Source of the DNA: Phycisphaerales bacterium
GTDB taxonomy: Bacteria; Planctomycetota; Phycisphaerae; UBA1845; Fen-1342
Length of the DNA: 19,679 nucleotides
NCBI GenBank assembly: GCA_030628805.1
Contig: DAOVQG010000044.1
Span: forward strand, 1 to 19,679
Direction of reading: 5' to 3'
Shown piece by piece: positions 1,780 through 13,591 of the stretch. Position 1 is the stretch's first letter; every line of letters begins with the position of its first letter. The translations under genes and the position numbers were made by a program. The notes below the pieces were generated by a model that was not told where the DNA came from, ran no database searches, and was given only the letters and a program-made list of their open reading frames with translations.

Positions 1780-2238
1780 TCATTCTTCTCCATGCCGTTG
1801 CTTCGTAATCCGTGCCTGGTCCATGAACTTTCCGCGTGCCGTGGCCATGAGCTGACCGTTTTGTACGACCTCAGCTTTGAGCACGTGCAAGGGAGGAGAG
1901 CAGCGTTCCACCCAGGCCCGCACGGTGACGGCCACGCCCGTGCGCACCGGATGCCGAAAGCGCACCGTCAGTTCCGCCGTCACGGCCGGGATGCCGTGAG
2001 CAAACATGCAATTGGTCATCGCGCCGTCCAGGAGGGAGGCAACCACACCACCGTGCAGCATACCTGCATAACCTTCAAAGGCTGCGTCGCAATCGAAGCG
2101 CGCCTGCACGCGGCCGTCGTCGGACGCCGCAAACTTCAGTCGCATGCTCCGGTCATTTGAGGGGCTACAGACCACGCAGTTTGAATGTACTTGGGCGCGC
2201 ACCTGCTGCAACCCGTCTTGGGCGCACTCAATGGTCAC
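1780..2238 (-). CDS. Hotdog-fold acyl-CoA thioesterase (PaaI/4HBT-like).
   Basis: 152 aa with the PaaI-type core HGGVVASLLDGAM about 60 residues from the start, as in PaaI. The GTG start at 2238 overlaps the end of the upstream Mrp gene by 11 nt. An alternative ATG at 2145 (MRLKF...) has GGAG just upstream. The stop abuts the next gene's ATG. Confidence 0.7.
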   Translation of the reverse strand: MTIECAQDGLQQVRAQVHSNCVVCSPSNDRSMRLKFAASDDGRVQARFDCDAAFEGYAGMLHGGVVASLLDGAMTNCMFAHGIPAVTAELTVRFRHPVRTGVAVTVRAWVERCSPPLHVLKAEVVQNGQLMATARGKFMDQARITKQRHGEE

Positions 2239-3451
2239 AGATGTTCTCTCCGGCCTGTAACGCTCCGTTCAGGTATGCGGTTGCCAACTGCTCGGGCGTC
2301 TCGGCCGGTGCGCCCACGACGACAGTGATGCCGTTTTGCGCGAACAGTTGCTGTGCCCGCTGGCCCATGCCGCCGGTAATGATCACGTTGGCGCCAAGCT
2401 CGTGCAGCCAGCGCGGCAGGGCTCCCGGCTCGTGGGATGGTGGCTTGTGCATGGTCTTGCCGAGGATCGCCTTGTCATCCTCGTTGACCTCGTACAGTGC
2501 GAACTCCTCGCAATGTCCAAAGTGCATGCTCACACGTCCTGCCTGTACAGGGATTGCAATCTTCATACGACGATCCTCCTTGCCTTGATTCTCTGTTGCG
2601 ACACTGGCGTGTGCTGGTGTTTGTTGTCCCAGGAGCAAGCCCACGACGTCGGCGAACGCCTGGGCGCCGAGACTGTTCGTACGGTTGTCAATGAACGGGA
2701 TTCCCGCATCGCCTGATGTAACGATATCCGGATCGATCGGGATCGATCCCAGGAATGGCACGCTCATTTCATCAGCCAGGGCCTTGCCGCCACCTTTCTT
2801 GAACAAATCGATTTGCTGCCCACAGTTTGGGCAAACAAAGCCGCTCATATTCTCCACGATTCCCGCAACCGGCAACGACAGACTGTTGCAGAAGGACACG
2901 CAGCGGCGCACGTCCGCGACAGCCAGGTCTTGCGGCGTAGTTACGATCACGGCCTCCGCCGGCGAACCGACGAGCTGAGCGACCGACAGCGGTTCGTCCC
3001 CCGTTCCCGGCGGTGAATCGACGACCAAGACATCCAGGTTGCCCCAAGCGACGTTTGTCAGGAATTGGCGTATGAGGTGAAACTTGCGCGGGCCGCGCCA
3101 GATCACGGGCTCGTTACCACTGGGCAACAGGAACCCGATCGACATGACCGCCAGTTTGTCGTTCATGTGGACCGGCGACATGTCCTCTCCGGAAACGCCG
3201 ATCTGCTTACCCTCCAGCCCCAGTAGTTTCGGAATGCTCGGTCCGTGGACGTCGACGTCCAGGAGGCCGACGGCCTTGCCGGCTAGTGCCAGGGATACCG
3301 CCAGGTTGGCAGCCACGGTGCTCTTCCCGACGCCGCCTTTGCCCGACAGGACGAGCAGCTTTCGTCGGATGGTCTTCATCCGGGCTTGAAGCATCTGCTC
3401 GTCACGCTGCCGCTGGGCCTCGTCAATTGGTTGTGCCTGTTGCTGTGACAT
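2228..3451 (-). CDS. Mrp/NBP35/ApbC-family P-loop ATPase fused to a C-terminal NifX/NifB-C-term-like (Nitro_FeMo-Co) domain.
   Basis: It contains the deviant Walker A LSGKGGVGKST and the Mrp-signature CPNCG (CxxC). The C-terminal roughly 110 aa (MKIAIPVQAGRVSMHFGHCEEFALYEV...VIITGGMGQRAQQLF...GITVV) match the NifX-like domain family. I chose the ATG at 3451 (MSQQQ...) because AGGAG lies 5 nt upstream. The ORF-track start at 3523 would overlap the upstream gene by 100 nt. Confidence 0.85.
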   Translation of the reverse strand: MSQQQAQPIDEAQRQRDEQMLQARMKTIRRKLLVLSGKGGVGKSTVAANLAVSLALAGKAVGLLDVDVHGPSIPKLLGLEGKQIGVSGEDMSPVHMNDKLAVMSIGFLLPSGNEPVIWRGPRKFHLIRQFLTNVAWGNLDVLVVDSPPGTGDEPLSVAQLVGSPAEAVIVTTPQDLAVADVRRCVSFCNSLSLPVAGIVENMSGFVCPNCGQQIDLFKKGGGKALADEMSVPFLGSIPIDPDIVTSGDAGIPFIDNRTNSLGAQAFADVVGLLLGQQTPAHASVATENQGKEDRRMKIAIPVQAGRVSMHFGHCEEFALYEVNEDDKAILGKTMHKPPSHEPGALPRWLHELGANVIITGGMGQRAQQLFAQNGITVVVGAPAETPEQLATAYLNGALQAGENICDH

Positions 3452-4346
3452 TTGGACTCCTGAGCGTCTCCAGGACGTTTGCCCAGAGTTGTCGAACATC
3501 GGCCGTGACACCGTCCGTTGCATACTCGGTGATGGACTGCATCCTGATCTGAGCCTCCGTGATGGCCCGATCGTAGCGAACTCTCCCCGCCACCTTAAGA
3601 CCGCGGCGGCGCGCCAAGGCTTCGATGTTTAGCGTGAGATTCTCGTTTATATCCCATTTGTTGATGCAAATCAGCGTTTCGACGCGGAAATGCCTGGTCA
3701 AATCTGATACACGTTCCAGATCATGCCGGCCGCTTAATGTCGGCTCCGTAACTACCAAGGCCAAATCAGCCCCTGTTATCGAGGCGATCACCGGACAGCC
3801 GATGCCTGGTGAGCCATCAATGAGAACCAGATCACGCGCGCGGCTTTTGGCGGTCTCCCGCGCCCGCTCGCGAACCAGGCTGACCAGCTTGCCGGAATTC
3901 TCTTCCGCGATACCTAACTTGGCATGCACCATCGGTCCGGCGCGCGTCTCGGATACGAACCACTCCCCGTTGATCGCGGGAGCAAACTCGATGGCCTCCT
4001 CGGGGCAGAACCAAGCACAGACGCCGCAACCCTCGCAGGCGATCGGATCGATGCGATACGCCTTTTCGCGCTGCCCTTCATCGGCTTCGCGGGAAGAAAC
4101 CGCATCAAACCGGCACACTTCCGCGCATTTCCCACAGGCCGTGCAGCGTTCGGGCATAATCCGGGCCTGCGAGCCGCCGGAAAACGTCTCGCGTTTGACA
4201 ATCGTCGGGTCCAGGACGAGATGGAGATCGGCCGCGTCGACGTCGCAATCCGCCAGAACGGCGTTTTCGGCCAGCGTGGCGAACGCGGCCACGATCGACG
4301 TCTTTCCTGTCCCGCCCTTGCCACTGATGATGACCAGTTCTTTCAT
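3423..4346 (-). CDS. MinD/CooC-superfamily P-loop ATPase with an inserted 2x[4Fe-4S] ferredoxin domain (COG1149-like), copy 1.
   Basis: MKELVIISGKGGTGKTS Walker A is followed by CTACGKCAEVC and CEGCGVCAWFCP, two CxxCxxCxxxC motifs. The ATPase body then resumes (VLIDGSPGIGCPV...). The ATG at 4346..4344 overlaps the TGA of the upstream methyltransferase as ATGA, which points to translational coupling. Confidence 0.85.
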   Translation of the reverse strand: MKELVIISGKGGTGKTSIVAAFATLAENAVLADCDVDAADLHLVLDPTIVKRETFSGGSQARIMPERCTACGKCAEVCRFDAVSSREADEGQREKAYRIDPIACEGCGVCAWFCPEEAIEFAPAINGEWFVSETRAGPMVHAKLGIAEENSGKLVSLVRERARETAKSRARDLVLIDGSPGIGCPVIASITGADLALVVTEPTLSGRHDLERVSDLTRHFRVETLICINKWDINENLTLNIEALARRRGLKVAGRVRYDRAITEAQIRMQSITEYATDGVTADVRQLWANVLETLRSPNVTATGTTN

Positions 4347-4918
4347 GAAGCGGTTCCCGTCTTTCGAAGCCTTTCCGGGCGGAAACCTCTGGCCCAAATG
4401 AGCCGGCGTCGCTCAATCAATCGCACCGAGGTTTCCTGATACCCAGCCTTATCGAGCATCCCGGCCAACTCCTCCGGGCTGTAGTAATCCTCACCCCACA
4501 GACGTTGCGCCAGCGAATCCCGTGGGAATTCCACAATCAGGATCTCCCCGCCGGGGCGCAAGACACGCTTGGCTTCCCGCAGGATTGTCCTGGCGTGTTT
4601 CATCTCGTGCAGGGCCCACAGCACTACGACCGCGTCCACGGATTCGTTCGCTGCGAAGTCAAGATGAGCTGCGTCTTTTCGAACGTAGCGAATCCGCGCG
4701 TTCCTGGATGAGCGAGGCCGTTTTGGAAAGTCCGCCGAGGAGATGTCAACCCCGGTGACGTGCTGGCGATACACTTGGGCCAGGTATTTCACCAACCCGC
4801 ACGCGCCACAGCCGAGATCGAGGACGCGACCAGCCAGACGCAATTCGCGCCCGATCCGCTCATACAGTCGCGGCTTGATCCTGTCGTAGAAGTTCATCTT
4901 CAGCATTTTGCCGGACAC
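4343..4918 (-). CDS. Class I SAM-dependent methyltransferase (Methyltransf_11/25-like).
   Basis: Motif I is VLDLGCGACG. There is an acidic post-I residue (VDIS) and a motif-II-like VDAVVVLWALHE. RPGGEILIVE is also present. The GTG at 4918 has GGAG 8 nt upstream. Alternative ATGs lie at 4906 and 4897. Confidence 0.8.
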   Translation of the reverse strand: MSGKMLKMNFYDRIKPRLYERIGRELRLAGRVLDLGCGACGLVKYLAQVYRQHVTGVDISSADFPKRPRSSRNARIRYVRKDAAHLDFAANESVDAVVVLWALHEMKHARTILREAKRVLRPGGEILIVEFPRDSLAQRLWGEDYYSPEELAGMLDKAGYQETSVRLIERRRLIWARGFRPERLRKTGTAS

Positions 4919-4961
4919 GCTTTTAACTCCGTGCCGTCGCGACCTTGTGTTCCTCTTCCAT

Positions 4962-5912
4962 TCATTGAGGCGCGCTATCGTCGTCTGTTCGTTTCGCGAA
5001 TCGGTAGAACGCTCCCGCGCCGCTACCCTCGCAGACCAGCACGTGCTCCCTGAGCAACTCGTCCAAGTACTTCACGACCTCATTGGAATGCAGTCCGAGC
5101 CCGGTGGCCAGATCGTTCAGTGTACACGGGCGCCGCATCAAGAGGTTGAGAATATCCTCCCGGCGGGCCTGATAATACTCGCCATGATGTACGGTTTGGT
5201 ATTCAGCGATCACCTCGGCGCGGTCTCCGAAGAGCCGAGCGGCCTGTGTGAGTTCGTCAAGCGGCACCGGCCGGGCAAATGCCTCGCAGGGGGGGCGTGT
5301 TACCGTGTTCAACTGCACGCGGTCGGGCATAATCCGATCTAGCCAGCGAGCAATCCTCTCCTGCTGGATGCCGGCTGCGTTTAGACCTTTCAGGAGAAAC
5401 ACCTCGAGCCAGAGCGGTTTGGAGAACCGCTGCCGAAACTCCTCGATTCCAGTTACCATGCGGTCGAAGAGAATCGCCGCGTGCGGCCGGTTTACCCACT
5501 GGAACGTGGCCTCGTCGCCGGCGTCCAGCGAGGGGATGACGAGATCCGCTTCCAGGAGCGCTTCCTGCACGTCACGGTCCCACAGCAGCGACCCGTTCGT
5601 CAGCACGGCGACGGGCCGGTCGGTTCTTTCCTTGATCCCCGCGATCAGTGGCGCCAAACGGGAATACAAGGTGGGTTCGCCCGATCCGGACAACGTGACA
5701 TAGTCGGCTTCCGGTCCGGCCGCCAGCCGGCACTCGAGTTCCTCCAGGACTTCGTCCAACGGGACATATTCCTTCCGTTCAATGGTCTTGTTCGTCGTTC
5801 GGCCGAGCTGGCAATAGATGCAGTCGTAGGAGCACGTCTTGAACGGTACCAGGTCGATGCCCAGTGAACGCCCCAGCCGACGGGACGGCACGGGTCCGAA
5901 TACGTGGCTCAT
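4962..5912 (-). CDS. Radical SAM protein (COG0731-like Fe-S oxidoreductase) with a C-terminal winged-helix-like tail.
   Basis: The N-terminus FGPVPSRRLGRSLGIDL is followed by the canonical CxxxCxxC (CSYDCIYC). A GSGEPTL glycine-rich SAM motif is present. AGGTGA lies 4 nt upstream of the ATG at 5912. Confidence 0.85.
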   Translation of the reverse strand: MSHVFGPVPSRRLGRSLGIDLVPFKTCSYDCIYCQLGRTTNKTIERKEYVPLDEVLEELECRLAAGPEADYVTLSGSGEPTLYSRLAPLIAGIKERTDRPVAVLTNGSLLWDRDVQEALLEADLVIPSLDAGDEATFQWVNRPHAAILFDRMVTGIEEFRQRFSKPLWLEVFLLKGLNAAGIQQERIARWLDRIMPDRVQLNTVTRPPCEAFARPVPLDELTQAARLFGDRAEVIAEYQTVHHGEYYQARREDILNLLMRRPCTLNDLATGLGLHSNEVVKYLDELLREHVLVCEGSGAGAFYRFAKRTDDDSAPQ

Positions 5913-5980
5913 CGGGTCACCTGTAGCTTCCAGGGAGGGACGATCATGGTGTCATTATATCCAGGCCTACGTTTCTTCTA

Positions 5981-6295
5981 CTAATCCGCGCCATCCTGAT
6001 CGTGCGGGAGTCCACGGTGCGGAGCTTTCTGTCGCCGGCTTCCCAGGCGCAGAGCTGACAGGAAGAACGCGGAAATACCGCCGAACAGCCCGGCGAAAGC
6101 AGGCCCACCCGCGCACCCGGGCTGACCGCAGAACGGACACACGGAGAACGCGGTCAAGAACGCGAACAAGCCGGCCCACCACCCCAAAAAGCGGGCCAGC
6201 GGTGCCAGGAAGCGGCGCTTGGCCGATCGACACAATTTCCGTGTGCCAGGGCCGGCAGATTGTTCGGTGGTGCCGGACTCGTTCGCGCGACTCAT
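5981..6295 (-). CDS. Small (104 aa) putative membrane protein with a CPFCGQPGC motif.
   Basis: There are two hydrophobic segments (FLGWWAGLFAFLTAFSV and FAGLFGGISAFFLSAL) and a Cys triad. Its ATG at 6295 overlaps the TGA of the upstream MinD-Fd gene as ATGA. This coupling is my main reason to believe an ORF with no other support. Confidence 0.45.
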   Translation of the reverse strand: MSRANESGTTEQSAGPGTRKLCRSAKRRFLAPLARFLGWWAGLFAFLTAFSVCPFCGQPGCAGGPAFAGLFGGISAFFLSALRLGSRRQKAPHRGLPHDQDGAD

Positions 6296-7158
6296 GGTTC
6301 TCCTGTCCGATGCGGCAGCAACGACTCCTCCAGCCGGGCCTGAAGCTGTTCGAACGCCGCTTGAGTCTCCGGCACGGCGTCGATCACGAGCTCCCCGCGC
6401 GAATACGCCTCCGCGATGCGTCGGTCGTCTGGAATCTCAAGCAACACCGGAATCTGCTCGGCGGCACAGTAATCCACAACGCGGCCGTCGCCGACATCGG
6501 CGCGATTGATGACCACGCCGAACGGAAGCTCCAGTTGCCGCACGGTCTCCACCGCCAGTATCAGGTCATTGAGCCCAAACGGCGTCGGCTCGGTAACGAG
6601 CACGACGAAGTCACTATTAAGCACGGCCGTAATGACCGGACAGGACGTACCCGGCGGGGCATCGATGACGAGCCAGTCAACGTCCGGGGCCGCGGCCCTG
6701 ACCGCCTTGATCACCGGCGGACTTTGGGCCTCGCCCACGTTCAGCAGACCGTGCACAAACTGGACCGGGCCGGCCTGCCCGCGCTCCACGACGCCAATCT
6801 CTCGCGGCACCTCGATAATCGCCTGGCAGGGGCAGGCCAAGGCGCAGCCGCCGCAGCCGTGGCACAGCTCCGGGTATACGAGGACCTTCTGTCCCAGACA
6901 CACGATCGCGCTGTATTGGCAAATCGCGCCGCACTGACCGCACTGCTCACACGCCTGTTCGATGACTCGCGGCACCGGTATCGCCACCGGCGTACGCTCA
7001 GCGAGGGCGGGTTTGAGGAACAGGTGTCCGTTGGGTTCTTCCACGTCGCAATCCAGGTACGCCGCGGAGCGTCCCTGGCGCGACACCGCCACGGCCAGAT
7101 TCGTGGCCAGTGTTGTTTTGCCGGTTCCGCCCTTGCCGCTGGCTATGGCTATTCTCAC
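6292..7158 (-). CDS. MinD/CooC-superfamily P-loop ATPase with an inserted 2x[4Fe-4S] ferredoxin domain, copy 2. It is a paralogue of 3423..4346.
   Basis: MRIAIASGKGGTGKTT Walker A with a GTG start at 7158. The motifs CEQCGQCGAIC and CHGCGGCALACP are present, and it has the same architecture as copy 1 (VIDAPPGTSCPV). Confidence 0.85.
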   Translation of the reverse strand: MRIAIASGKGGTGKTTLATNLAVAVSRQGRSAAYLDCDVEEPNGHLFLKPALAERTPVAIPVPRVIEQACEQCGQCGAICQYSAIVCLGQKVLVYPELCHGCGGCALACPCQAIIEVPREIGVVERGQAGPVQFVHGLLNVGEAQSPPVIKAVRAAAPDVDWLVIDAPPGTSCPVITAVLNSDFVVLVTEPTPFGLNDLILAVETVRQLELPFGVVINRADVGDGRVVDYCAAEQIPVLLEIPDDRRIAEAYSRGELVIDAVPETQAAFEQLQARLEESLLPHRTGEP

Positions 7159-7203
7159 TGCACACCGTGGCTCATTACAGCCGTTGGCCTGAACAAGCCA
7201 TGC

Positions 7204-7380
7204 CTATTCGGGAACACTGATTGCCTCGGTTGGGCATTCGGCCACGCACGCTGCACAGTCGATACAGTTCTCTTCATCAATGACTGCCTTTTCGTTCTCC
7301 AGCGCAATAACCTCTACTGGGCACACGTCAACGCATGCGCCGCATCCCGTACACTTTTCAACATCTACCGTCGCCGCCAT
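7204..7380 (-). CDS. Small 2x[4Fe-4S] ferredoxin (58 aa). It is not in the supplied ORF track.
   Basis: Reverse-strand translation gives MAATVDVEKCTGCGACVDVCPVEVIALENEKAVIDEENCIDCAACVAECPTEAISVPE*. The two CxxCxxCxxxCP motifs are perfect. AGGAAGGA lies 9 nt upstream of the ATG at 7380. It sits 4 nt after the stop of the upstream gene. Confidence 0.7.
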   Translation of the reverse strand: MAATVDVEKCTGCGACVDVCPVEVIALENEKAVIDEENCIDCAACVAECPTEAISVPE

Positions 7381-7384
7381 GCGG

Positions 7385-8080
7385 TTATCCTTCCTGTTCC
7401 AACTGCTGAATCCGCTGCTGCAATTGGCGCATTTGTTCGGTCATGGCATCCGCCTGCCGCTTGAGCATCGCCAACTCATCCTCCTTGCTGAGGTCTTGAC
7501 CCGGCGGCAACGTCGAAGCCGGATCGTCTCCTGGCGGTCCAGCACCCATGCCCATCCCGCGGCCCATGCCACCGCCGCGCCCCATGCCCCGTCCCATGCC
7601 GCCGCCTCGGCCCATACCACCACCCCTTCCCATCCCGCGGCCCATGCCCATGCCCCCACCGGACATCCGCGGTTGCTGGAATGGTGTCGGCTGGCCCTGA
7701 AGAGCGCTGGGCGCGCCAGCCATGCCGGCATGGCCGGGGACGTTTGGCTGTTCTGTCGGCTTGAGCTGACCGGCCTTGAACAGCTCGGCCACGTCCCGAA
7801 CCGTCCCAGAGCAGCCGATAATCACGCCGATGCCGGCTGCCGACAGGGTCTGATGGGCGTTCGGGCCGCAGTTGCCGGTCAGAACGTACTGGACGCCCTT
7901 GTCGGCCATGATCCGGGCCGACTGAATCCCGGCTCCCTGACCGAGCTCCTGGCTGGCGTTGTCAATCGCCTCGAAGCTCATGTCGTCGGTCTCGACGATC
8001 AGGAAATAGGGGCAGCGGCCGAAGCGCGGTTCAACACCCGACTCCAGCCGCGGTTCCGTAGCGGTAATTGCGATTTTCAT
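7385..8080 (-). CDS. NifX/NifB-C-term-like domain protein fused to a Gly-Met-Arg-rich repeat and a C-terminal coiled coil (DUF5320-like C-terminal module).
   Basis: The NifX-like domain is MKIAITATEPRLESGVEPRFGRCPYFLIVE...YVLTGNCGPNA...GIGVI. Residues 141-179 are GGGMGMGRGMGRGGGMGRGGGMGRGMGRGGGMGRGMGMG. The protein ends in the heptad-like LSKEDELAMLKRQADAMTEQMRQLQQRIQQLEQEG. AAAGGA lies about 13 nt upstream of the ATG at 8080. The ORF-track start at 8131 would run into the upstream gene. Confidence 0.8.
   Translation of the reverse strand: MKIAITATEPRLESGVEPRFGRCPYFLIVETDDMSFEAIDNASQELGQGAGIQSARIMADKGVQYVLTGNCGPNAHQTLSAAGIGVIIGCSGTVRDVAELFKAGQLKPTEQPNVPGHAGMAGAPSALQGQPTPFQQPRMSGGGMGMGRGMGRGGGMGRGGGMGRGMGRGGGMGRGMGMGAGPPGDDPASTLPPGQDLSKEDELAMLKRQADAMTEQMRQLQQRIQQLEQEG
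7544..7660 (-). repeat. In-frame tandem 15-nt (GMGRG) codon repeat.
   Basis: The nucleotide periodicity is visible as ccatgcc/ccgcgg units across 7540-7680. It encodes GMGRG/GGGMGRG units. Confidence 0.8.
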
Positions 8081-8127
8081 GTGTGTTGTTGTCCTTTCGT
8101 TTAGCAGTCCGCCGCAACAGTCATGAT

Positions 8128-9039
8128 TCACAGTCCCGCGGAACCTGCGTCCTCGATTTCATTCGTGTCCCCGGCGGCAACCCGGGCGTGCCTCGATCTC
8201 CGCAGAATCAGACTGCCGACGCGGCAGCCCAGATCTCTGGCGATCACGGGGCATTTTGCCTTGAGCACAAAGAAGATGTCCTTCTCCACCTCGTTGAGCG
8301 TCTCATAGTTGCCCTGACCTTTCGCGACGATCATGTCTGCCGCGTCGAAACGGTGCCGGAACTCGCTGCTGCAATCGTCGAGAATCGTGCCCGGCGCATC
8401 CGAACCGTTGTCGATGACTTCGACCAGCCCGGGAATCCCCGCGGCCTGCGTGTCGGCGATCGTCACATCATTGATCACCGGAAAGCCCCGCACGGCCACG
8501 GTCACCTTCTCGACCGGCATCTGTTCGAGCAACAGCCGGTCGAACACGATCTCCCCGGCGTTGTCGGCCAAATAGAGAATTCTTCGCGCCCCGGACAGCG
8601 TCTCGGCAAAGGCACGCATGTCGCCGTCCAGCGGTGCCGACGAAGCATCTTCAATCGCCTCGTGCAAGGCAGGTTCGTCAAAGTGGGCCTTGACGCCCAT
8701 GTCAATGACATTGCCGGCGATCGCCAGCCGCAGAGCTGTCTCCAACGGACGGGATGAGGCGTGCACCCGAGCGCGCAGCTTCGGATAGAGCTCCAGCGCC
8801 ACCCGAGTGGAGTGATCCTTCAGCTCACGATACGGATCACTTTGACCCGTCAGGCGGCGAATCAGACGATGGATGCGTTGGCCCATCGCCGGCGGTGATT
8901 GCCACAGGTCCATTTCACTAGCGGCTCGCAGGATCTCTCGCAGCAGCCGCTCGTGAACCTCCTCGTCGTCGGTCACCAAGCGCACGGAATCAAGCGCCTG
9001 TCGGACGAAGCAGGGCACGCACTCAAGGTAGGTTTGCAT
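8128..9039 (-). CDS. DUF89 / ARMT1-like family protein (damage-control phosphatase-type fold).
   Basis: The N-terminus MQTYLECVPCFVRQALD and the internal KGQGNYE and GFPVINDVT regions match my memory of DUF89 signatures. The ATG is at 9039. Confidence 0.7.
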   Translation of the reverse strand: MQTYLECVPCFVRQALDSVRLVTDDEEVHERLLREILRAASEMDLWQSPPAMGQRIHRLIRRLTGQSDPYRELKDHSTRVALELYPKLRARVHASSRPLETALRLAIAGNVIDMGVKAHFDEPALHEAIEDASSAPLDGDMRAFAETLSGARRILYLADNAGEIVFDRLLLEQMPVEKVTVAVRGFPVINDVTIADTQAAGIPGLVEVIDNGSDAPGTILDDCSSEFRHRFDAADMIVAKGQGNYETLNEVEKDIFFVLKAKCPVIARDLGCRVGSLILRRSRHARVAAGDTNEIEDAGSAGL

Positions 9040-9505
9040 TGCTCGTGGCCGATCCTCTTAACCTGATGGCCCCGCGGGGGCACGCTTCCACACAGGCCCC
9101 GCAACCGCGGCAGGCCTCCGCGTTCACCGTGACGGCCGTCTCGCCCAGGGTGATCGCCTCGGTCGGACAGACCGTCTGGCAAACCCCACACAGGGTGCAC
9201 GCTGCTTCGTCGACACTCGCGACCAGCGGTGCATGAGCGGCGCGCCGTGCGGCCTCGCGCAACCTTACTGCGTCCAGGTGCTCCATGGCAAGGGTCTGGT
9301 CCTTCAAAGGGCTGAGCATCCGCGGTTTGGCCGGCGCGGCGCCTCTCGGAAGGTTCGGGGGCTGCGCTGTCCGATCACTCCTGCCGCCTTGGAGCGCGCG
9401 CCGCATGCGTCCGCCCCGGCCACGCCCGCGTCCCATTCCGCGGCCATCGCGACGACCACGACCACCAGCACCCGGCGGCCCCGTTCCGTCACCGCGCGGC
9501 ATCAT
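9023..9505 (-). CDS. Fusion of the DUF5320-like N-terminal motif and an RG-rich region with a C-terminal 2x[4Fe-4S] ferredoxin domain.
   Basis: The N-terminus is M(M)PRGDGTGPPGAGGRGRRDGRGMGRGRGRGG. The C-terminus has CTLCGVCQTVCP and CRGCGACVEACP. The ATG at 9505 overlaps the TGA of the upstream DUF5320 gene as TGATG. Its 3' end overlaps the DUF89 start by 17 nt. Confidence 0.75.
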   Translation of the reverse strand: MMPRGDGTGPPGAGGRGRRDGRGMGRGRGRGGRMRRALQGGRSDRTAQPPNLPRGAAPAKPRMLSPLKDQTLAMEHLDAVRLREAARRAAHAPLVASVDEAACTLCGVCQTVCPTEAITLGETAVTVNAEACRGCGACVEACPRGAIRLRGSATSNANLP

Positions 9506-9864
9506 CAACCCTCTTTTTCCTTGGCCGCCTCGAGTTCCGCGATCCGTTTCCTGATCTCACCGAGCGTGCCTTCAAAATGCTCCGCCTGAGCTCTCAGTGC
9601 TTGAACTTCCTGCTCGGCCATCACTGGCGGATAGTACGCCGCGGCCCCGTAAGCGGGCTGTGCGCCGACAACTCCCATCGGATAGTACCCATGGCGCCAT
9701 CCGCGGCCCCAGCCGCGCCCGCGGCCCCAGCCGCGGCCCATGCCCCAACCGCGCCCCGGCATCTGGTTCGTGTAACCGGGCATTGAAAACCCGGCGCAGT
9801 AACCTGCCGCTCGTCCCGTCATTGAGCCCAGTCCGGCAGGGCCCGTTCCATCTCCACCTGGCAT
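9505..9864 (-). CDS. DUF5320-family small protein with a conserved N-motif, an RGW repeat and a C-terminal coiled coil.
   Basis: The N-terminus is MPGGDGTGPAGLGSMTGRAAGYCAGF. The repeat is GRGWGMGRGWGRGRGWGRGW. The C-terminus is EQEVQALRAQAEHFEGTLGEIRKRIAELEAAKEKEG. AAGGAG lies 8 nt upstream of the ATG at 9864. Confidence 0.75.
   Translation of the reverse strand: MPGGDGTGPAGLGSMTGRAAGYCAGFSMPGYTNQMPGRGWGMGRGWGRGRGWGRGWRHGYYPMGVVGAQPAYGAAAYYPPVMAEQEVQALRAQAEHFEGTLGEIRKRIAELEAAKEKEG
9688..9756 (-). repeat. In-frame tandem codon repeat encoding GRGWG units.
   Basis: cgcggccccagccgcg-type 12-15 nt units are visible at 9690-9760. Confidence 0.7.
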
Positions 9865-9904
9865 GATGTTGCTCCTTTTTCAAAATGCCCTGGAATCCGT
9901 CAAC

Positions 9905-10090
9905 TTAGCTGCCCCTTCCACGTCCTGCATCGCTGCCTTGCCTCTGGCCACGACCGCTGCCGCGACCCCGTCTGGGCCGTTGGCCTTGTCCGCCGCCACC
10001 GCTCCCTTTTTTTCCGCCCTTGCAAGGCCCCAGACCTCTGCCGGTCCCGGAACCTTGTCCTTGCGGCCCAGTTCCATCGCCTGCCGGCAT
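9905..10090 (-). CDS. Short (61 aa) DUF5320-like protein with the N-motif followed by a Gly/Arg-rich tail.
   Basis: MPAGDGTGPQGQGSGTGRGLGPCKGG...RGRGSGRGQRQGS. A perfect AAGGAGGTGA Shine-Dalgarno lies 8 nt upstream of the ATG at 10090. The ORF-track N-terminus at 10186 runs through the RBS and the stop of the upstream gene, so I consider it spurious. Confidence 0.55.
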   Translation of the reverse strand: MPAGDGTGPQGQGSGTGRGLGPCKGGKKGSGGGGQGQRPRRGRGSGRGQRQGSDAGRGRGS

Positions 10091-10095
10091 TGTGA

Positions 10096-10509
10096 TCACC
10101 TCCTTTCGTGCTTGTCTGAAGACGAAAAGCGTTGCAGGTCGAGCGCCTGCATCCAATGTCCTTCTACAGTCGGCTCTCTGATACATTCAAGCTCCCCGCG
10201 CTTGAACTGCTCCACGGCCTGCCCCACGTGCCCAGTGGCCCCGACGTAGACCTCGACATCGCCGGCTTTCAGTCTGGCCAAGGCTTTGGGGCCGACCTTC
10301 CCGGTAATCACGGCATGCACGCCCAGTTTGAGGATGGCCTCGGCTGCCTTGATTCCTGCGTACCCGAGAATATTGAGATTCCCCTTGTTGTCGTGAACCG
10401 TAGACCGATCGGTCTCGGTATCAACCACCACGAAGAACCTGGCCCGCCCGAACCGCGGATCAAGCTCGGCCCCCAGATTCGATCCTCTTGATGTGACCGC
10501 TACCTTCAT
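10096..10509 (-). CDS. NifX/NifB-C-term-like (dinitrogenase FeMo-cofactor-binding fold) domain protein.
   Basis: MKVAVTSRGSNLGAELDPRFGRARFFVVVD...HAVITGKVGPKALARLKAGDVEVY. GGAGG lies 9 nt upstream of the ATG at 10509. That ATG overlaps the upstream TGA as ATGA. The ORF-track start at 10665 is implausible. Confidence 0.8.
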   Translation of the reverse strand: MKVAVTSRGSNLGAELDPRFGRARFFVVVDTETDRSTVHDNKGNLNILGYAGIKAAEAILKLGVHAVITGKVGPKALARLKAGDVEVYVGATGHVGQAVEQFKRGELECIREPTVEGHWMQALDLQRFSSSDKHERR

Positions 10510-10916
10510 GCCATCCCCCTCCAACGGCCCGCTCCTGGCCGGCCGCCGTGACGCCGACCTCCCCGAAACCGTCGGCGCCGACCGCAGCAGCCCGGCATCA
10601 AGAATGCCTCGTCCGGCAATTGCCCCGCGAGGAAGGCCCGTAGAACGTCCTCCACCGGCCCGCAAATTTGCGGTATGAGCCGTATTCCCGCGGAGGTCAA
10701 CATCGCCTCAAGCGGCCACGAGATCGCGCCGCAGATAAGCACGTGCACGCCGAGCGCCGTCACCCGGCTCGCCCTAGCCGCAAGCCGCGTTTCTTCGAGA
10801 TCCACCTCACTCCGGCCGATCTCGGCGTCACGCTCGACGTCTACCACCAGCAAACGCCTGGCGACGTCGAAGACCGGAGAAATCCGGCCGTCCCATGTTG
10901 GAAGCGCTACTCTCAT
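10506..10916 (-). CDS. NifX-like domain protein. It is the first gene of the array after the regulator.
   Basis: MRVALPTWDGRISPVFDVARRLLVVD...VLICGAIS...GIRLIPQICGPVEDV. The start is either the ATG at 10916 or a TTG at 10934. There is a basic Cys-Cys tail (MPGCCGRRRRFRGG). Confidence 0.7.
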   Translation of the reverse strand: MRVALPTWDGRISPVFDVARRLLVVDVERDAEIGRSEVDLEETRLAARASRVTALGVHVLICGAISWPLEAMLTSAGIRLIPQICGPVEDVLRAFLAGQLPDEAFLMPGCCGRRRRFRGGRRHGGRPGAGRWRGMA

Positions 10917-10970
10917 CACTGAGGACTCGTGCAAGACGCGCGCCGCCCCAGACGATCAGCCTCGATTCCT

Positions 10971-11035: not shown

Positions 11036-11081
11036 TTGCATAATGCAAGCACCGCTGGCCGCCGGTCTTGCACACTGCAAT
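11036..11081 (-). promoter_or_regulatory. Cluster of TGCA-centred palindromes that are candidate upstream activator (enhancer) sites.
   Basis: TTGCAT-A-ATGCAA is a perfect 6+1+6 palindrome at 11036-11048. TGCAAG-N17-CTTGCA is an inverted repeat at 11044-11072. A further CTGCAA lies at 11075-11080. The sites sit 50-110 bp upstream of the putative -24 element, between the regulator's stop and the array. Confidence 0.3.
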
Positions 11082-11082
11082 A

Positions 11083-12450
11083 CTATTCCTTCTTCCGGCT
11101 CCCGTGCCCCGTATCCGGCAGTGCGATCCCCATGGACTTGATCTTGCGGAACAGAGTGCTGGGGTCAATGCCCAGCTCGCGGGCAGCGGCCGTACGGTTG
11201 CCGCCGTGCCGGCGGACTGCATCCGTGATGTGCATGGCCTCAAGGGCTTGCAGCGTGAGAGCGCCCTGGCCTCGCGGAGGCTTGAGGTCGGTGTCGCCAC
11301 GCATTGCTGGCGGCAGATGATGTGGTTCTATCAGGGCGCCTCGGCAAAGCACGAACGCGTGCTCGATGACGTTCTCGAGCTCGCGCACGTTGCCCGGATA
11401 GTCGTGTTCCATCAGCAGCGCCAGCGTCTCTTCCGAGATGCCGGCCACGTCTTTGTCCTGGAGGCGATTGAACTTACTGATGAAACGCTCCACCAGCAGC
11501 GGGATGTCCTCCCGGCGATCGCGCAACTCCGGCAGCTTCAGCCGGATCACGTTGATGCGATAAAACAGATCCTGCCTGAAAACGCCCTTCTTCACCAACC
11601 GGTTCAGGTCCTGGTTGGTGGCGGCGACCACGCGCACATCCACCTTCACCGGCTCGACGGACCCGAGTGGCTCGAACACTCTTTCCTGGAGGACGCGGAG
11701 CAACCGGGCCTGCATGGCGGGCGAGATATCACCGATTTCGTCGAGCAGGATCGTTCCGCCGTCCGCGCTTGCCAATCGTCCCGGCTTGTCGTGCCGGGCG
11801 TCGGTAAACGCGCCGGCCTTGTAGCCGAACAGCTCCGATTCCAACAGGGTGTCCGGCAGCGCGCCGCAATTGACCGCAACGAAACGCTTGTCACGGCGCG
11901 GCGAGAGGCTGTGCAACGCCCGGGCGACCAGCTCCTTGCCGGTACCGCTGGCGCCCTCGATGAGCACGGTTGTGTTGCTCTCGGCGATTTGCGGGAGCAG
12001 GTCGAAAAGCTGCCGCATCGCCGAACTGCGGCCGACGATGTCCGCGAACGTGTATTTCGCCTCCAACTCCTTGCGCAGCTCCTCCACCAGGCTGAGGTCC
12101 CGGAAGGTTTCCACACCACCGATCGTATCGCCAGCGGCGTTCTTCAGGGCTGCCGCCGAGATGCTGATAGGAATGCGCCGGCCATCGGCGTCGAGAATGT
12201 AGATGGCCTTATTCACGATCGACCGCCCGGAGCGGAGCGTCTCCTTCAGGGCACACTCGTTCTCGCAGATGCTCGCCCGGAACACGTCGCAGCACCGCCG
12301 CCCGATGGCTTCCGCACGTGGCACGCCCGTGATTTGCTCGGCCGCCCGGTTGAACGACGTGATCCGCCAATCCTCATCGACGGTGAAAACGCCGTCGGCG
12401 ATGGAGTCGAGGATAGTGTCCGTCACACGCTTCTCGGATGATGCGGTCAT
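11083..12450 (-). CDS. Sigma-54-dependent transcriptional activator (bacterial enhancer-binding protein) with PAS, AAA+ sigma-54-interaction and Fis-type HTH domains. It has no receiver domain.
   Basis: The N-terminal PAS domain has a CC-x7-C-x3-C cluster (RRCCDVFRASICENEC). The central domain has Walker A GASGTGKE, a GAFTDA variant of the GAFTGA loop, and RVVAATN. The C-terminal HTH is AARELGIDPSTLFRKIK. Confidence 0.9.
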   Translation of the reverse strand: MTASSEKRVTDTILDSIADGVFTVDEDWRITSFNRAAEQITGVPRAEAIGRRCCDVFRASICENECALKETLRSGRSIVNKAIYILDADGRRIPISISAAALKNAAGDTIGGVETFRDLSLVEELRKELEAKYTFADIVGRSSAMRQLFDLLPQIAESNTTVLIEGASGTGKELVARALHSLSPRRDKRFVAVNCGALPDTLLESELFGYKAGAFTDARHDKPGRLASADGGTILLDEIGDISPAMQARLLRVLQERVFEPLGSVEPVKVDVRVVAATNQDLNRLVKKGVFRQDLFYRINVIRLKLPELRDRREDIPLLVERFISKFNRLQDKDVAGISEETLALLMEHDYPGNVRELENVIEHAFVLCRGALIEPHHLPPAMRGDTDLKPPRGQGALTLQALEAMHITDAVRRHGGNRTAAARELGIDPSTLFRKIKSMGIALPDTGHGSRKKE

Positions 12451-12727: not shown

Positions 12728-13591
12728 ATGTGGACGGAACTTCTGGCCAGTTCGGCGGGCGATCTCCTGATGGGAGCGAACCTCCCGTTCGTGGCGTCGT
12801 TCTTGCTGGCGGTGCTGTTCACTCTGCTGAGCGTGTTGGGCCTGGGTCATTCCGACGCGGACGCCGACGTCGACGCTGATGCGGATCTGGATCATGACAT
12901 CGACCTCGATCACGATGTGGACGTGGACCTCGAGCACGACTTGGACCTGGAGGTCGATCACGATGTCGATCTCGAGGTTGACCATGACATTGATATGGAC
13001 GCCGACCACGATCTGGACGTGGACCATGACGTGGAGACCGAAATCGCGCACGATCATGATGTGGAACATGACGCCGAGGTCCACGCGGGGCACGAAGCCG
13101 GCGTTGACACGGTCTCGGCGATAACGCTTAACGACGTGCTGTACTTCTTCGGCATCGGGAAGGTTCCGCTATCGATCCTGCTGATGACGGCTTGTTACAC
13201 CTTCGGGCTGGTCGGCTGGCTGCTGAATACCAGCGCGGCTCGTCCGGGCGGCGAGGTGGGGGCGTGGTTTACGGTTAGTCTGCTGGGTGCCTTGACGGCT
13301 AGTCTGGTGATGATGCGCTTGGTCAGCAGTGTCATCGCCCGCTACCTGCCGACCAAGGGTGTTTCCGGCTTCACTCGCCGACAACTTGTCGGAATGCGGG
13401 GCGTGGTCGGTCTGCCGGTGGATGAGCAGGGCGGCCGGGCTCAGTTCACCGATCCCGAGGGAACGCTGCACCAGATCCGCTGTCGAGTCGTGCCCGGCGG
13501 TAAGCCGTTGCCGAAGGGCGCGAAGATCATAGTGGTTAAGTATTTGCTCAAGGATGACCTGTACTACGTTGCCGCCGACCGGCGCCGTTAA
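12728..13591 (+). CDS. NfeD-family membrane protein (C-terminal OB-fold) carrying an 81-residue alternating acidic repeat insert.
   Basis: There is an N-terminal TM helix, then the (D/E-X)n repeat at residues 43-123, then two more hydrophobic helices. The C-terminal domain GMRGVVGLPVDEQGGRAQFTDPEGTLHQIRCRVVPGGKPLPKGAKIIVVKYL is typical of NfeD short forms. A flotillin gene lies immediately downstream. GAGGGAA lies 7 nt upstream of the ATG. Confidence 0.8.
   Translation: MWTELLASSAGDLLMGANLPFVASFLLAVLFTLLSVLGLGHSDADADVDADADLDHDIDLDHDVDVDLEHDLDLEVDHDVDLEVDHDIDMDADHDLDVDHDVETEIAHDHDVEHDAEVHAGHEAGVDTVSAITLNDVLYFFGIGKVPLSILLMTACYTFGLVGWLLNTSAARPGGEVGAWFTVSLLGALTASLVMMRLVSSVIARYLPTKGVSGFTRRQLVGMRGVVGLPVDEQGGRAQFTDPEGTLHQIRCRVVPGGKPLPKGAKIIVVKYLLKDDLYYVAADRRR
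12854..13096 (+). repeat. In-frame GAC/GAT-N3 codon repeat encoding a strictly alternating (Asp/Glu)-(aliphatic/His) 81-residue tract.
   Basis: The peptide is DADADVDADADLDHDIDLDHDVDVDLEHDLDLEVDHDVDLEVDHDIDMDADHDLDVDHDVETEIAHDHDVEHDAEVHAGHE. 37 of 41 odd positions are Asp or Glu. Confidence 0.85.

Follow-up and report, generated by a model that had tools for sequence, protein, structure and literature searches.

The window considered here, that is, the whole stretch of 19,679 nucleotides that was analyzed (contig DAOVQG010000044.1, assembly GCA_030628805.1), belongs to a metagenome-assembled Phycisphaerae (Planctomycetota) genome, and it carries an array of genes that was identified, on sequence grounds, as an expanded version of the orp (Orange Protein complex, ORP) locus. 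The same DNA is also present on contig JAGMDK010000260.1 of assembly GCA_023128695.1. The GC content was approximately 60% across the window, and a run of minus-strand genes occupied its central 10.5 kb. Within this run, the orp array comprises 14 genes at 2228-10916, following the gene of a sigma-54 enhancer-binding protein (EBP), orpR, at 11083-12450 on the same strand. A first-pass annotation of this DNA had counted 15 genes at 2228-10934, which is corrected here. It had also described the genes as lying on one strand with overlapping stop and start codons; the single strand was borne out, whereas overlaps were found at only 6 of the 13 junctions, the other gaps being 4-68 nt and the extremes a 29-nt overlap and a 68-nt gap. 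Past 2228, a thioesterase gene follows after a gap of 82 nt, and a gene for a protein resembling coenzyme A (CoA)-disulfide reductase (CoADR) follows with a gap of 0 nt. The array is probably one co-directional unit that runs on through these two genes. Terminator and sigma-70 promoter scans of the window gave nothing above the expectation from shuffled sequences, and thus no internal boundaries were obtained from them. As dozens of species have these families together, the arrangement is not due to chance, and the operon-like layout proposed at first was supported.

The identification of the array as an orp locus is secure because of the match of one protein to the MrpORP equivalog, the motifs of OrpR, the pairings with the orp locus of Desulfovibrio sp. 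X2, and the best matches to the D. gigas ORP structure 2WFB. The last gene of the array (2228-3451, minus strand, as are all genes of the array) encodes MrpORP (Orp9), in which an Mrp/NBP35 P-loop domain is fused to a NifX ("Di-Nase") domain. This protein scored 523 bits against the NCBIfam MrpORP equivalog NF041136, the cut-off of which is 450, and it contains GKGGVGKS, a CPNC pair at residues 231-234, SMHFGHCE, and a C-terminal CDH; SMHFGHCE departs from the published CXHFGHCE in that its first residue is Ser, not Cys. OrpR (11083-12450), which consists of PAS, AAA+, and Fis-type helix-turn-helix domains according to Pfam, carries C53-x-D55-x6-C62-x3-C66 in its PAS domain and GAFTDA at residue 213. 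The Cys/acidic spacing is the same as that of C52, D/E54, C61, and C65 of OrpR from D. vulgaris Hildenborough (DvH), a [4Fe-4S] redox sensor in which C52, C61, and C65, with D/E54, are the ligands in the PAS domain and which also has the GAFTDA loop (PMC8359166, PMC4641369). The Cys motif was present in 23 of the 29 EBPs adjoining orp-type clusters.

The D. gigas ORP sequence taken from PDB 2WFB led to the orp locus of Desulfovibrio sp. X2 (locus L084; L-numbered loci are the genomic loci compared with the window), and the two loci were compared pairwise. The window OrpR was 58% identical to the EBP of the X2 locus. Two MinD-like ATPases of the Orp3/Orp4 type, with inserted 2x[4Fe-4S] domains recognized with Pfam, corresponded one-to-one to those of X2, the ATPase at 6292-7158 (288 aa) to the first MinD-ferredoxin with 45% identity and that at 3423-4346 (307 aa) to the second with 50% identity; in both, the Walker A motif is of the deviant type (KGGTGKT), and CxxCxxCxxxC occurs twice. 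The X2 ORP was 48% identical to the NifX-DUF5320 fusion at 7385-8080 and 41% identical to the stand-alone NifX protein at 10096-10509. In PDB, the best match of the latter was 2WFB (E 1e-16), as was that of the NifX domain of the fusion (E 8.5e-20, approximately 50% identity). The first gene of the array (10506-10916) encodes a divergent Orp7-type protein with a C-terminal MPGCC motif and an Arg/Gly tail. It was 31% identical to the product of the first X2 orp operon gene, a 168-aa NifX-like protein with an MPGC...RG tail, and had no match in PDB. The X2 locus is co-directional and encodes, at the position matching Orp5, a 112-aa Gly/Arg/Cys-rich protein, the likeness of which to the short DUF5320 protein of the window is one of composition alone. 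Downstream of the X2 cluster (L084, 11106-12491), a fusion of metallo-beta-lactamase and rhodanese of the persulfide dioxygenase/sulfurtransferase type was found, while the CoADR-like reductase stands at the distal position of the window. The distal genes of both loci hint at persulfide handling beside orp genes.

The first-pass annotation had called the system uncharacterised, which does not hold, as OrpR, MrpORP, and the ORP complex have been studied experimentally in Desulfovibrio (PMC8359166, PMC6345978, PMC3897727). In DvH, orp5-orp4-orp3 and orp7-orp8-orp9 flank orpR and are transcribed from sigma-54 promoters with integration host factor (IHF); Orp3 and Orp4 resemble MinD and contain two [4Fe-4S] motifs each, and Orp8 is the orange protein with the NifX fold (PMC8359166, PMC3897727, PMC6345978). 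Orp9 is MrpORP and hands Fe-S clusters to Orp3-Orp4-Orp8 in vitro (PMC6345978). Orp5 is a small Cys-containing protein that binds [2Fe-2S]. No substrate or client has been defined for orp, so that the refuting finding named at first, an already characterised neighborhood with a defined substrate, was borne out only by half. The recurrence of such neighborhoods in anaerobes without a settled role, as stated at first, was confirmed. The paper of Fievet 2011 reportedly defined the orp locus, and the ORP complex has been under study since 2011, its function still being unsettled. In the literature searched, no ORP work later than 2021 was found.

The position of the array directly downstream of a sigma-54 activator was upheld, and sigma-54 control was supported by the spacer between orpR and the first NifX gene. 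This spacer is 166 nt long and contains two perfect palindromes, TTGCA-N3-TGCAA, 32 bp apart at 11036-11080. These are the only two matches in the window and are candidate OrpR upstream activating sites (UAS). The tandem pair was also found, with equal spacing, in the orpR-to-NifX spacers of loci L004 and L005, the OrpR proteins of which are 85% identical to that of the window, whereas the remainder of the spacer has diverged. Approximately 110 bp downstream of the palindrome pair, a candidate sigma-54 -24/-12 promoter, CGGCGC-N5-TTGCA, was located by pattern match at 10930-10945 on the minus strand, 13 nt before the first ATG. The corresponding elements are TGGCAC-GCGTC-CTGCC in L004 and TGGCGC-GCTGG-TTGCC in L005, and the distance to the ATG is 13 nt in the window, L004, and L005 alike. 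Ten further loci in which an OrpR-type gene lies upstream were also inspected, and GG-N9-YGC preceded the first NifX gene in 8 of them. This promoter is an in silico prediction; the lone match in the window is not significant by itself, and its support comes from positional conservation. In the internal intergenic gaps of the array, no GG-N10-GC element was found, and when the stretch from the UAS to the promoter was inspected by eye for an IHF site, only weak partial matches were seen.

In several phyla, the -24/-12 element ends 13-16 nt from the first orp start codon (L004, approximately 3230-3260; L005, approximately 8095-8125; L055, L120, and L145), and the first orp gene has no Shine-Dalgarno sequence. 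As the element lies so close to the ATG and no Shine-Dalgarno sequence is present, this implies that the predicted sigma-54 transcripts would be leaderless or nearly leaderless.

The four NifX-fold proteins first reported, namely, two stand-alone proteins, a fusion with Mrp, and a fusion with an RG-repeat/coiled-coil tail, were confirmed, as PF02579 was found in each, the last one being a DUF5320 fusion. Apart from MrpORP, these are the Orp7-type protein at 10506-10916 (136 aa, 36 bits), the orange-protein-like stand-alone protein at 10096-10509 (137 aa, 70 bits), and the fusion at 7385-8080 (231 aa, 86 bits), in which the NifX domain is followed by a Gly/Met/Arg repeat and a DUF5320 coiled coil (PF17253, 39 bits). 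The repeat of the fusion is a 44-aa GMGR segment with an isoelectric point (pI) of 12. The NifX and DUF5320 architecture is widespread and dominated the best matches of this fusion. Triple fusions of NifX, DUF5320, and Fer4 are also common elsewhere; in them, modules encoded by three separate window genes are joined in a single protein.

Three further proteins begin with the MP-x-GDGTGP-type motif, as had been noted at first. The full-length DUF5320 protein at 9505-9864 (119 aa) matched the entire PF17253 model with 95 bits and combines an MPGGDGTGP motif with Cys23, GRGW repeats, and a C-terminal coiled coil. The short DUF5320-type protein at 9905-10090 (61 aa, PF17253 27.8 bits) consists of 41% Gly, has a pI of 12, starts with MPAGDGTGP, and also contains Cys23. 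For this gene, the European Nucleotide Archive gives a 65-aa open reading frame (ORF) at 9880-10077 in another frame; the frame used here is considered real because the L004 orthologue is 80% identical and the protein matches Pfam. The third protein, at 9023-9505 (160 aa), joins a DUF5320-like N-terminus and an RG tract to a C-terminal 2x[4Fe-4S] ferredoxin domain of the Fer4 families with two CxxCxxCxxxC motifs, a domain that the first-pass annotation had missed. Among 58 orp-linked members, the N-terminus of DUF5320 followed the consensus MP(G/R)(G/F)D(G/R)TGPxGxGPMTGR(G/A)xG(Y/F)C, with the Cys present in 93%, and this motif is followed by Gly/Arg(/Trp, Met) repeats and then by a coiled coil. 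Altogether, cationic Gly/Arg tracts were found in five window proteins. The literature was searched for functional work on DUF5320, and none was found.

The radical S-adenosylmethionine (SAM) protein at 4962-5912 (316 aa, PF04055), which has a C-terminal winged helix, contains CX3CX2C at residues 27-34, a GSGEP SAM motif, and an invariant N-terminal FGPVPSRRLGRSLG hairpin. Among 29 homologues, only C27, C31, and C34 were invariant, and C263 in the winged-helix domain was nearly so. Against the NCBIfam models of MoaA, the tungsten (W)-cofactor maturase, and TYW1, the protein scored 38-45 bits, with cut-offs of 284-380. All of its NCBIfam matches lay far under their cut-offs, so that it falls in no curated family, and it had no match among PDB sequences. 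An AlphaFold2 model (mean predicted local distance difference test score, 78.7) was compared with PDB using Foldseek; pyruvate formate-lyase activase, TYW1, viperin, NifB, and MoaA matched about equally, with a template modeling (TM) score of approximately 0.5 and 13-21% identity, the NifB chains giving approximately 0.53-0.56 and 16-18%. In this model, the matches represent the generic radical SAM core and give no specific assignment. Because the protein lacks the Cys/His ligands for the K1 and K2 auxiliary clusters of NifB, a NifB-like cluster-fusing role is unlikely, and the reading of the array as a split NifB, suggested at first, was found to be weak, given a canonical CX3CX2C motif, one near-invariant Cys, and generic fold matches.

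Records of the Joint Genome Institute often label this radical SAM family "wyosine [tRNA(Phe)-imidazoG37] synthetase." A TYW1 identity was rejected, as the score was 38.5 bits against a cut-off of 318 for the equivalog TIGR03972, and the label is thus regarded as an over-annotation that has spread in metagenome records.

The DUF89 protein at 8128-9039 (303 aa, PF01937 238 bits) is a metal-dependent phosphatase-fold protein that, judging from its family and PDB matches (2FFJ and 2G8L), clearly has an ARMT1-like fold; its scores against the NCBIfam damage-control phosphatase equivalogs were 194 and 174 bits, with cut-offs of 440 and 500, respectively. The small class I SAM methyltransferase at 4343-4918 (191 aa, Methyltransf_11 and Methyltransf_25) had the DVU_1556 family as its best NCBIfam match (64 bits, cut-off 155). 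The DUF89 and radical SAM genes are immediate or near neighbors in at least seven loci (L027, L057, L034, L050, L065, L049, and L012), and this adjacency suggests that the two enzymes may act on the same, possibly phosphorylated, substrate. Syntrophales genomes contain a compact DUF89-radical SAM-Mrp triad.

The remaining members of the unit are smaller or more peripheral. A free 2x[4Fe-4S] ferredoxin of 58 aa is encoded at 7204-7380, as determined from Pfam and its motifs. At 5981-6295, a two-helix membrane protein of 104 aa is encoded, for which no NCBIfam match was found and no Pfam match even at E up to 1. Its inter-helix loop, SVCPFCGQPGC, follows the conserved motif S(V/I)CP(F/V)CGxxxC, and homologues were found in L004 (7126-7461) and L033 (12642-13037). 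In L033, a Spirochaetota locus, this gene stands directly after the radical SAM and CoADR-like genes. Beyond the array, the hotdog-fold (4HBT/PaaI-type) thioesterase at 1780-2145, assigned using Pfam and NCBIfam, is probably a distal member of the unit; a 4HBT thioesterase also lies 3' of Mrp or NifX in L004, L006, L045, L065, L068, and L076. The flavoprotein of the CoA-disulfide reductase/NADH oxidase family at 433-1779 (Pyr_redox_2) is possibly another distal member. It has a single active-site Cys (VPCGIPY) and scored 246 bits against the CoADR model, which has a cut-off of 579.

Other genes flank this unit. A response-regulator receiver gene at 1-406, co-directional with the CoADR-like gene and 26 nt past it, runs off the left end of the window, and a second PAS-sigma-54 activator is encoded approximately 2.4 kb farther along the source contig, beyond the response-regulator gene. 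On the other side, divergent from orpR, a YqiJ/NfeD-like membrane protein is encoded at 12728-13591 on the plus strand. It contains an insertion of approximately 90 aa made of His/Asp-rich 8-residue repeats (DHDVDLEV), which arise from a 24-nt tandem repeat at 12852-13035 and may bind metal. A flotillin/SPFH-like gene follows at 13678-15726, and no link of these genes to orp was found. A nearby ABC transporter was rejected as a member of the system, as it is of the carbohydrate type and not a metal transporter.

The radical SAM family is large (more than 8000 database proteins at E < 1e-10; at least 594 GTDB species carry it), and the neighborhood was surveyed in two directions. In the forward census, six-frame ORFs of 80 radical SAM loci were scanned with the window proteins, and families within 8 kb of the radical SAM gene were counted in those 56 loci whose flank was 6 kb or longer. 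NifX was found in 36 of these loci, MinD-ferredoxin in 27, DUF5320 in 27, Mrp in 23, and an OrpR-like EBP in 17; DUF89 followed with 12, the thioesterase with 10, the CoADR-like protein with 8, the methyltransferase with 6, and the 104-aa protein with 2. Co-oriented core orp families stood near the radical SAM gene in most of the loci (at least one in 40, at least two in 30, and at least three in 23 of the 56). In the reverse census, the Orp4-type ATPase served as the anchor in metagenome contigs, and 32 loci had at least 8 kb of flank. A second ATPase was present in 29 of the 32, NifX in 26, DUF5320 in 22, Mrp in 19, and the radical SAM protein in 12, followed by the EBP (9), DUF89 (5), the methyltransferase (5), and the CoADR-like protein (4). 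The 104-aa protein was therefore rare, with 2 of 56 radical SAM-anchored loci and 0 of 32 ATPase-anchored loci. Thus, the co-occurrence of NifX, DUF5320, MinD-ferredoxin, and radical SAM genes across genomes, for which a neighborhood comparison had been proposed at first, was confirmed by both censuses.

The hosts belonged to Planctomycetota, Verrucomicrobiota, Kiritimatiellia, Spirochaetota, Desulfobacterota, Acidobacteriota, Chloroflexota, Anaerolineales, Actinomycetota, and NC10, and one was archaeal, a Methanocellaceae genome assembled from a metagenome (L075). The usual place of the radical SAM gene is either with the ATPases (between their two genes or immediately 3' of them) or immediately 3' of NifX genes, and its direct neighbor is often DUF89. 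L004 has the gene content of the window in a different order, which speaks for selection on the content rather than inheritance of a block.

From these results, the array is read as a single-operon, expanded orp locus for the redox-gated storage and delivery of Fe-S or metal-sulfide species, to which a probability of roughly 60% is assigned. The pairwise comparisons establish the core proteins as orthologues of Desulfovibrio proteins that bind and exchange Fe-S clusters. By homology with Desulfovibrio, the [4Fe-4S] cluster of the OrpR PAS domain would be redox-sensitive, so that the operon would be on only at low redox potential. OrpR probably acts from the two TTGCA-N3-TGCAA sites, approximately 110 bp upstream of the -24/-12 promoter that abuts the first start codon. 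MrpORP would serve as the Fe-S carrier, which in Desulfovibrio loads [4Fe-4S] onto Orp3/Orp4, complexed with the NifX-fold orange protein. The NifX-fold proteins, that is, the Orp7-type, the orange-protein-type, and the fusion proteins, would hold anionic metal-sulfide species non-covalently, as would the five proteins with cationic Gly/Arg tracts, DUF5320 included. The species held may be Fe-S fragments or thioferrate-like polymers, as in IssA of Pyrococcus. For the assembly or mobilization of these species, low-potential electrons gated by ATP would come from the ATPase-ferredoxins and from the two additional ferredoxin modules, and MrpORP would pass finished clusters to client proteins. Judging from adjacency, the thioesterase and the CoADR-like reductase may handle a CoA thiol or persulfide sulfur. 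The theme of metal-cluster carriers and Fe-S insertion ATPases in the first-pass annotation is thereby supported, and all domains that it had named were borne out by Pfam and NCBIfam profile searches.

Several points weigh against this storage and delivery reading. It was built from gene sequences, with metal binding, complex formation, and transcription as predictions. The group studying ORP still describes its physiological role as unclear or "putatively cell division" (PMC8359166, PMC3897727), and native D. gigas ORP contains a Mo-Cu-S cluster, not an Fe-S cluster (cited in PMC6345978). The radical SAM, DUF89, and methyltransferase genes, from their adjacency, may be an optional, recurrent accessory module, and the point in favor of thiol or persulfide handling is recurrence in 8-10 of 56 loci. 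The likeness to IssA is architectural, as the window proteins were set beside P. furiosus IssA by domain layout and not by sequence, and the overall pI of the fusion at 7385-8080 is 5.8, because of its acidic DUF5320 coiled coil, whereas IssA and IssX are defined by a high pI. The DvH OrpR site, GGGCGYRTTTTGCGCCC, was absent from the promoter region of the window; its single match in the window, at 4554-4570, is inside a gene, has three mismatches, and is at chance level, and no match was found in the X2 locus at up to three mismatches. Finally, DvH orp forms two divergent operons flanking orpR, while the window has a single co-directional unit downstream of orpR. As the X2 orp locus is also co-directional, the divergent layout is considered specific to DvH and not family-defining.

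Three rival explanations were ranked below this reading. The best of them, which we consider unlikely, is that the locus makes one complex or novel metallocofactor in the manner of a split NifB, as a biosynthetic line dedicated to it, in which the radical SAM, DUF89, and methyltransferase enzymes would build or tailor a cluster or its organic ligand on the NifX carriers for a client encoded elsewhere. This explanation would account for the radical SAM gene standing very often beside NifX genes or between the two ATPase genes, and for its recurring adjacency to DUF89 (L027, L057, L034, L050, and L065). It is also consistent with the fold neighbors, which include NifB, MoaA, viperin, and TYW1 and often have clusters or nucleotides as substrates, and with the sub-threshold best NCBIfam matches, MoaA and the tungsten-cofactor maturase. 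However, conserved Cys/His auxiliary-cluster ligands are lacking in the radical SAM protein, and no client enzyme is encoded near the array among the window proteins searched with Pfam and NCBIfam. Moreover, no radical SAM gene lies near the X2 orp locus or in 20 of the 32 orp-type loci, and thus the core works without the radical SAM protein. The DvH orp locus, too, presumably has no radical SAM gene. DUF89 was present in only 16-21% of the loci and the methyltransferase in only 11-16%, which also speaks against the cofactor line.

A device for cell division or positioning, the function put forward in the Desulfovibrio literature, is judged very improbable; septum placement would here fall to the MinD-like ATPases and a polar MrpORP, with the Fe-S clusters as redox inputs only. 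Morphological defects on inactivation of OrpR or orp and a polar MrpORP have been published (PMC8359166, PMC6345978, PMC3897727), and the ATPases belong to the MinD/ParA class. Nevertheless, carriers of metal clusters, ferredoxins, and enzymes account for most of the 14 proteins; the neighborhood is also present in the archaeal L075 and in many phyla with differing division machineries; and no division genes were linked in either census. An Fe-S defect could also come first, with the division phenotype as its consequence.

The handling of thiomolybdate, thiotungstate, or copper, in which the system would store or detoxify Mo/W-Cu-S species such as the [S2MoS2CuS2MoS2] of native D. gigas ORP, fits the two ORP-like NifX proteins (41-50% identical to the Desulfovibrio and D. 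gigas ORP), the cationic tails, which would suit anionic thiometallates, and the weak similarity of the radical SAM protein to MoaA and the W-cofactor maturase, but it has little to recommend it in a window without Mo/W or Cu transport genes or molybdopterin genes, in which the sole ABC transporter is of the carbohydrate type, and given that MrpORP and Orp3/Orp4 carry Fe-S clusters in vitro (PMC6345978).

A bolder form of the storage and delivery reading can also be formulated, which is rather unlikely. Here, orp would be a cross-phylum, ATP-driven, organelle-like store of metal sulfide, in which cationic proteins of the DUF5320/IssX type condense around an anionic Fe-S polymer, Orp3/Orp4 mobilize it by reduction, and the radical SAM-DUF89-methyltransferase module performs new chemistry. 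This chemistry could concern an organic ligand or a modification of the RG tails, such as Arg methylation or a radical modification. If this is true, Fe-S supply in anaerobes would have, in addition to assembly of the ISC/SUF type, a third general route.

Fe-S biogenesis in anaerobes is poorly understood, and the ORP complex seems to be restricted to anaerobes. The present results show orp to be more than a peculiarity of Desulfovibrio, namely, a widespread system whose parts can be tested. Its conserved periphery includes DUF5320 in approximately two-thirds of the loci and the radical SAM family in more than one-third, together with the IssA-like fusions, and this gives a first functional context for DUF5320 and for the radical SAM family mislabelled as wyosine synthase. 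The extended periphery (radical SAM, DUF5320, IssA-like fusions, and DUF89), the cross-phylum spread including Planctomycetota, and the different presumed OrpR site appear to be new; no paper describing any of them was found in the literature covered, which did not include the locus-defining Fievet 2011.

Compared with known systems, the window is closest to the DvH orp complex, with which it shares an OrpR-type activator with the Cys triad and GAFTDA, MrpORP, paired MinD-like 2x[4Fe-4S] ATPases, an Orp7-type and an orange-protein-type NifX protein, and a predicted sigma-54 promoter. It differs from DvH in its Planctomycetota host and in its presumed UAS, TTGCA-N3-TGCAA in two copies. Moreover, seven genes go beyond DvH orp, namely, three for DUF5320 proteins and those for DUF89, the free ferredoxin, the radical SAM protein, and the methyltransferase. 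The window also has the small membrane protein, the fusion of the orange-protein domain to a DUF5320 tail, and the thioesterase and CoADR-like genes at the 3' end.

The ATPases can be compared with Mrp/NBP35/ApbC and with the NifH/BchL/CfbC-type reductases, as the deviant Walker A motif of dimer-forming SIMIBI ATPases is common to all of them, and MrpORP of the window shares with Mrp/NBP35/ApbC the CxxC pair for a bridging [4Fe-4S] cluster. However, Orp3/Orp4 contain an inserted two-cluster ferredoxin domain, whereas the NifH/BchL/CfbC type has a subunit-bridging cluster, and ATP-coupled electron transfer by Orp3/Orp4 is only an analogy to these reductases.

In the nitrogenase assembly system of NifB, NifX, and NafY, the NifX fold is likewise a carrier of non-covalently bound clusters, and in the window a radical SAM gene adjoins NifX genes. 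However, the window contains no nitrogenase genes, and ORP and MTH1175, rather than NifX or NafY, come closest to its NifX domains.

The Pyrococcus iron-sulfur storage protein IssA consists of a NifX domain and a disordered, cationic tail in which Trp, Gly, and Arg abound; this tail is proposed to wrap anionic thioferrate, and a related "IssX" clade is uncharacterised (PMC5524996). The window resembles IssA/IssX in having a NifX (IPR003731) domain followed by a cationic Gly/Arg(/Trp) tail in an anaerobic, sulfide-rich context, and its GRGW and GMGR repeats fit the published description of the IssA tail (PMC5524996). Unlike IssA, the tail of the window fusion ends in an acidic DUF5320 coiled coil, which accounts for its whole-protein pI of 5.8, and tails also exist as separate proteins with the conserved N-terminal motif MPxxDGTGP...C.

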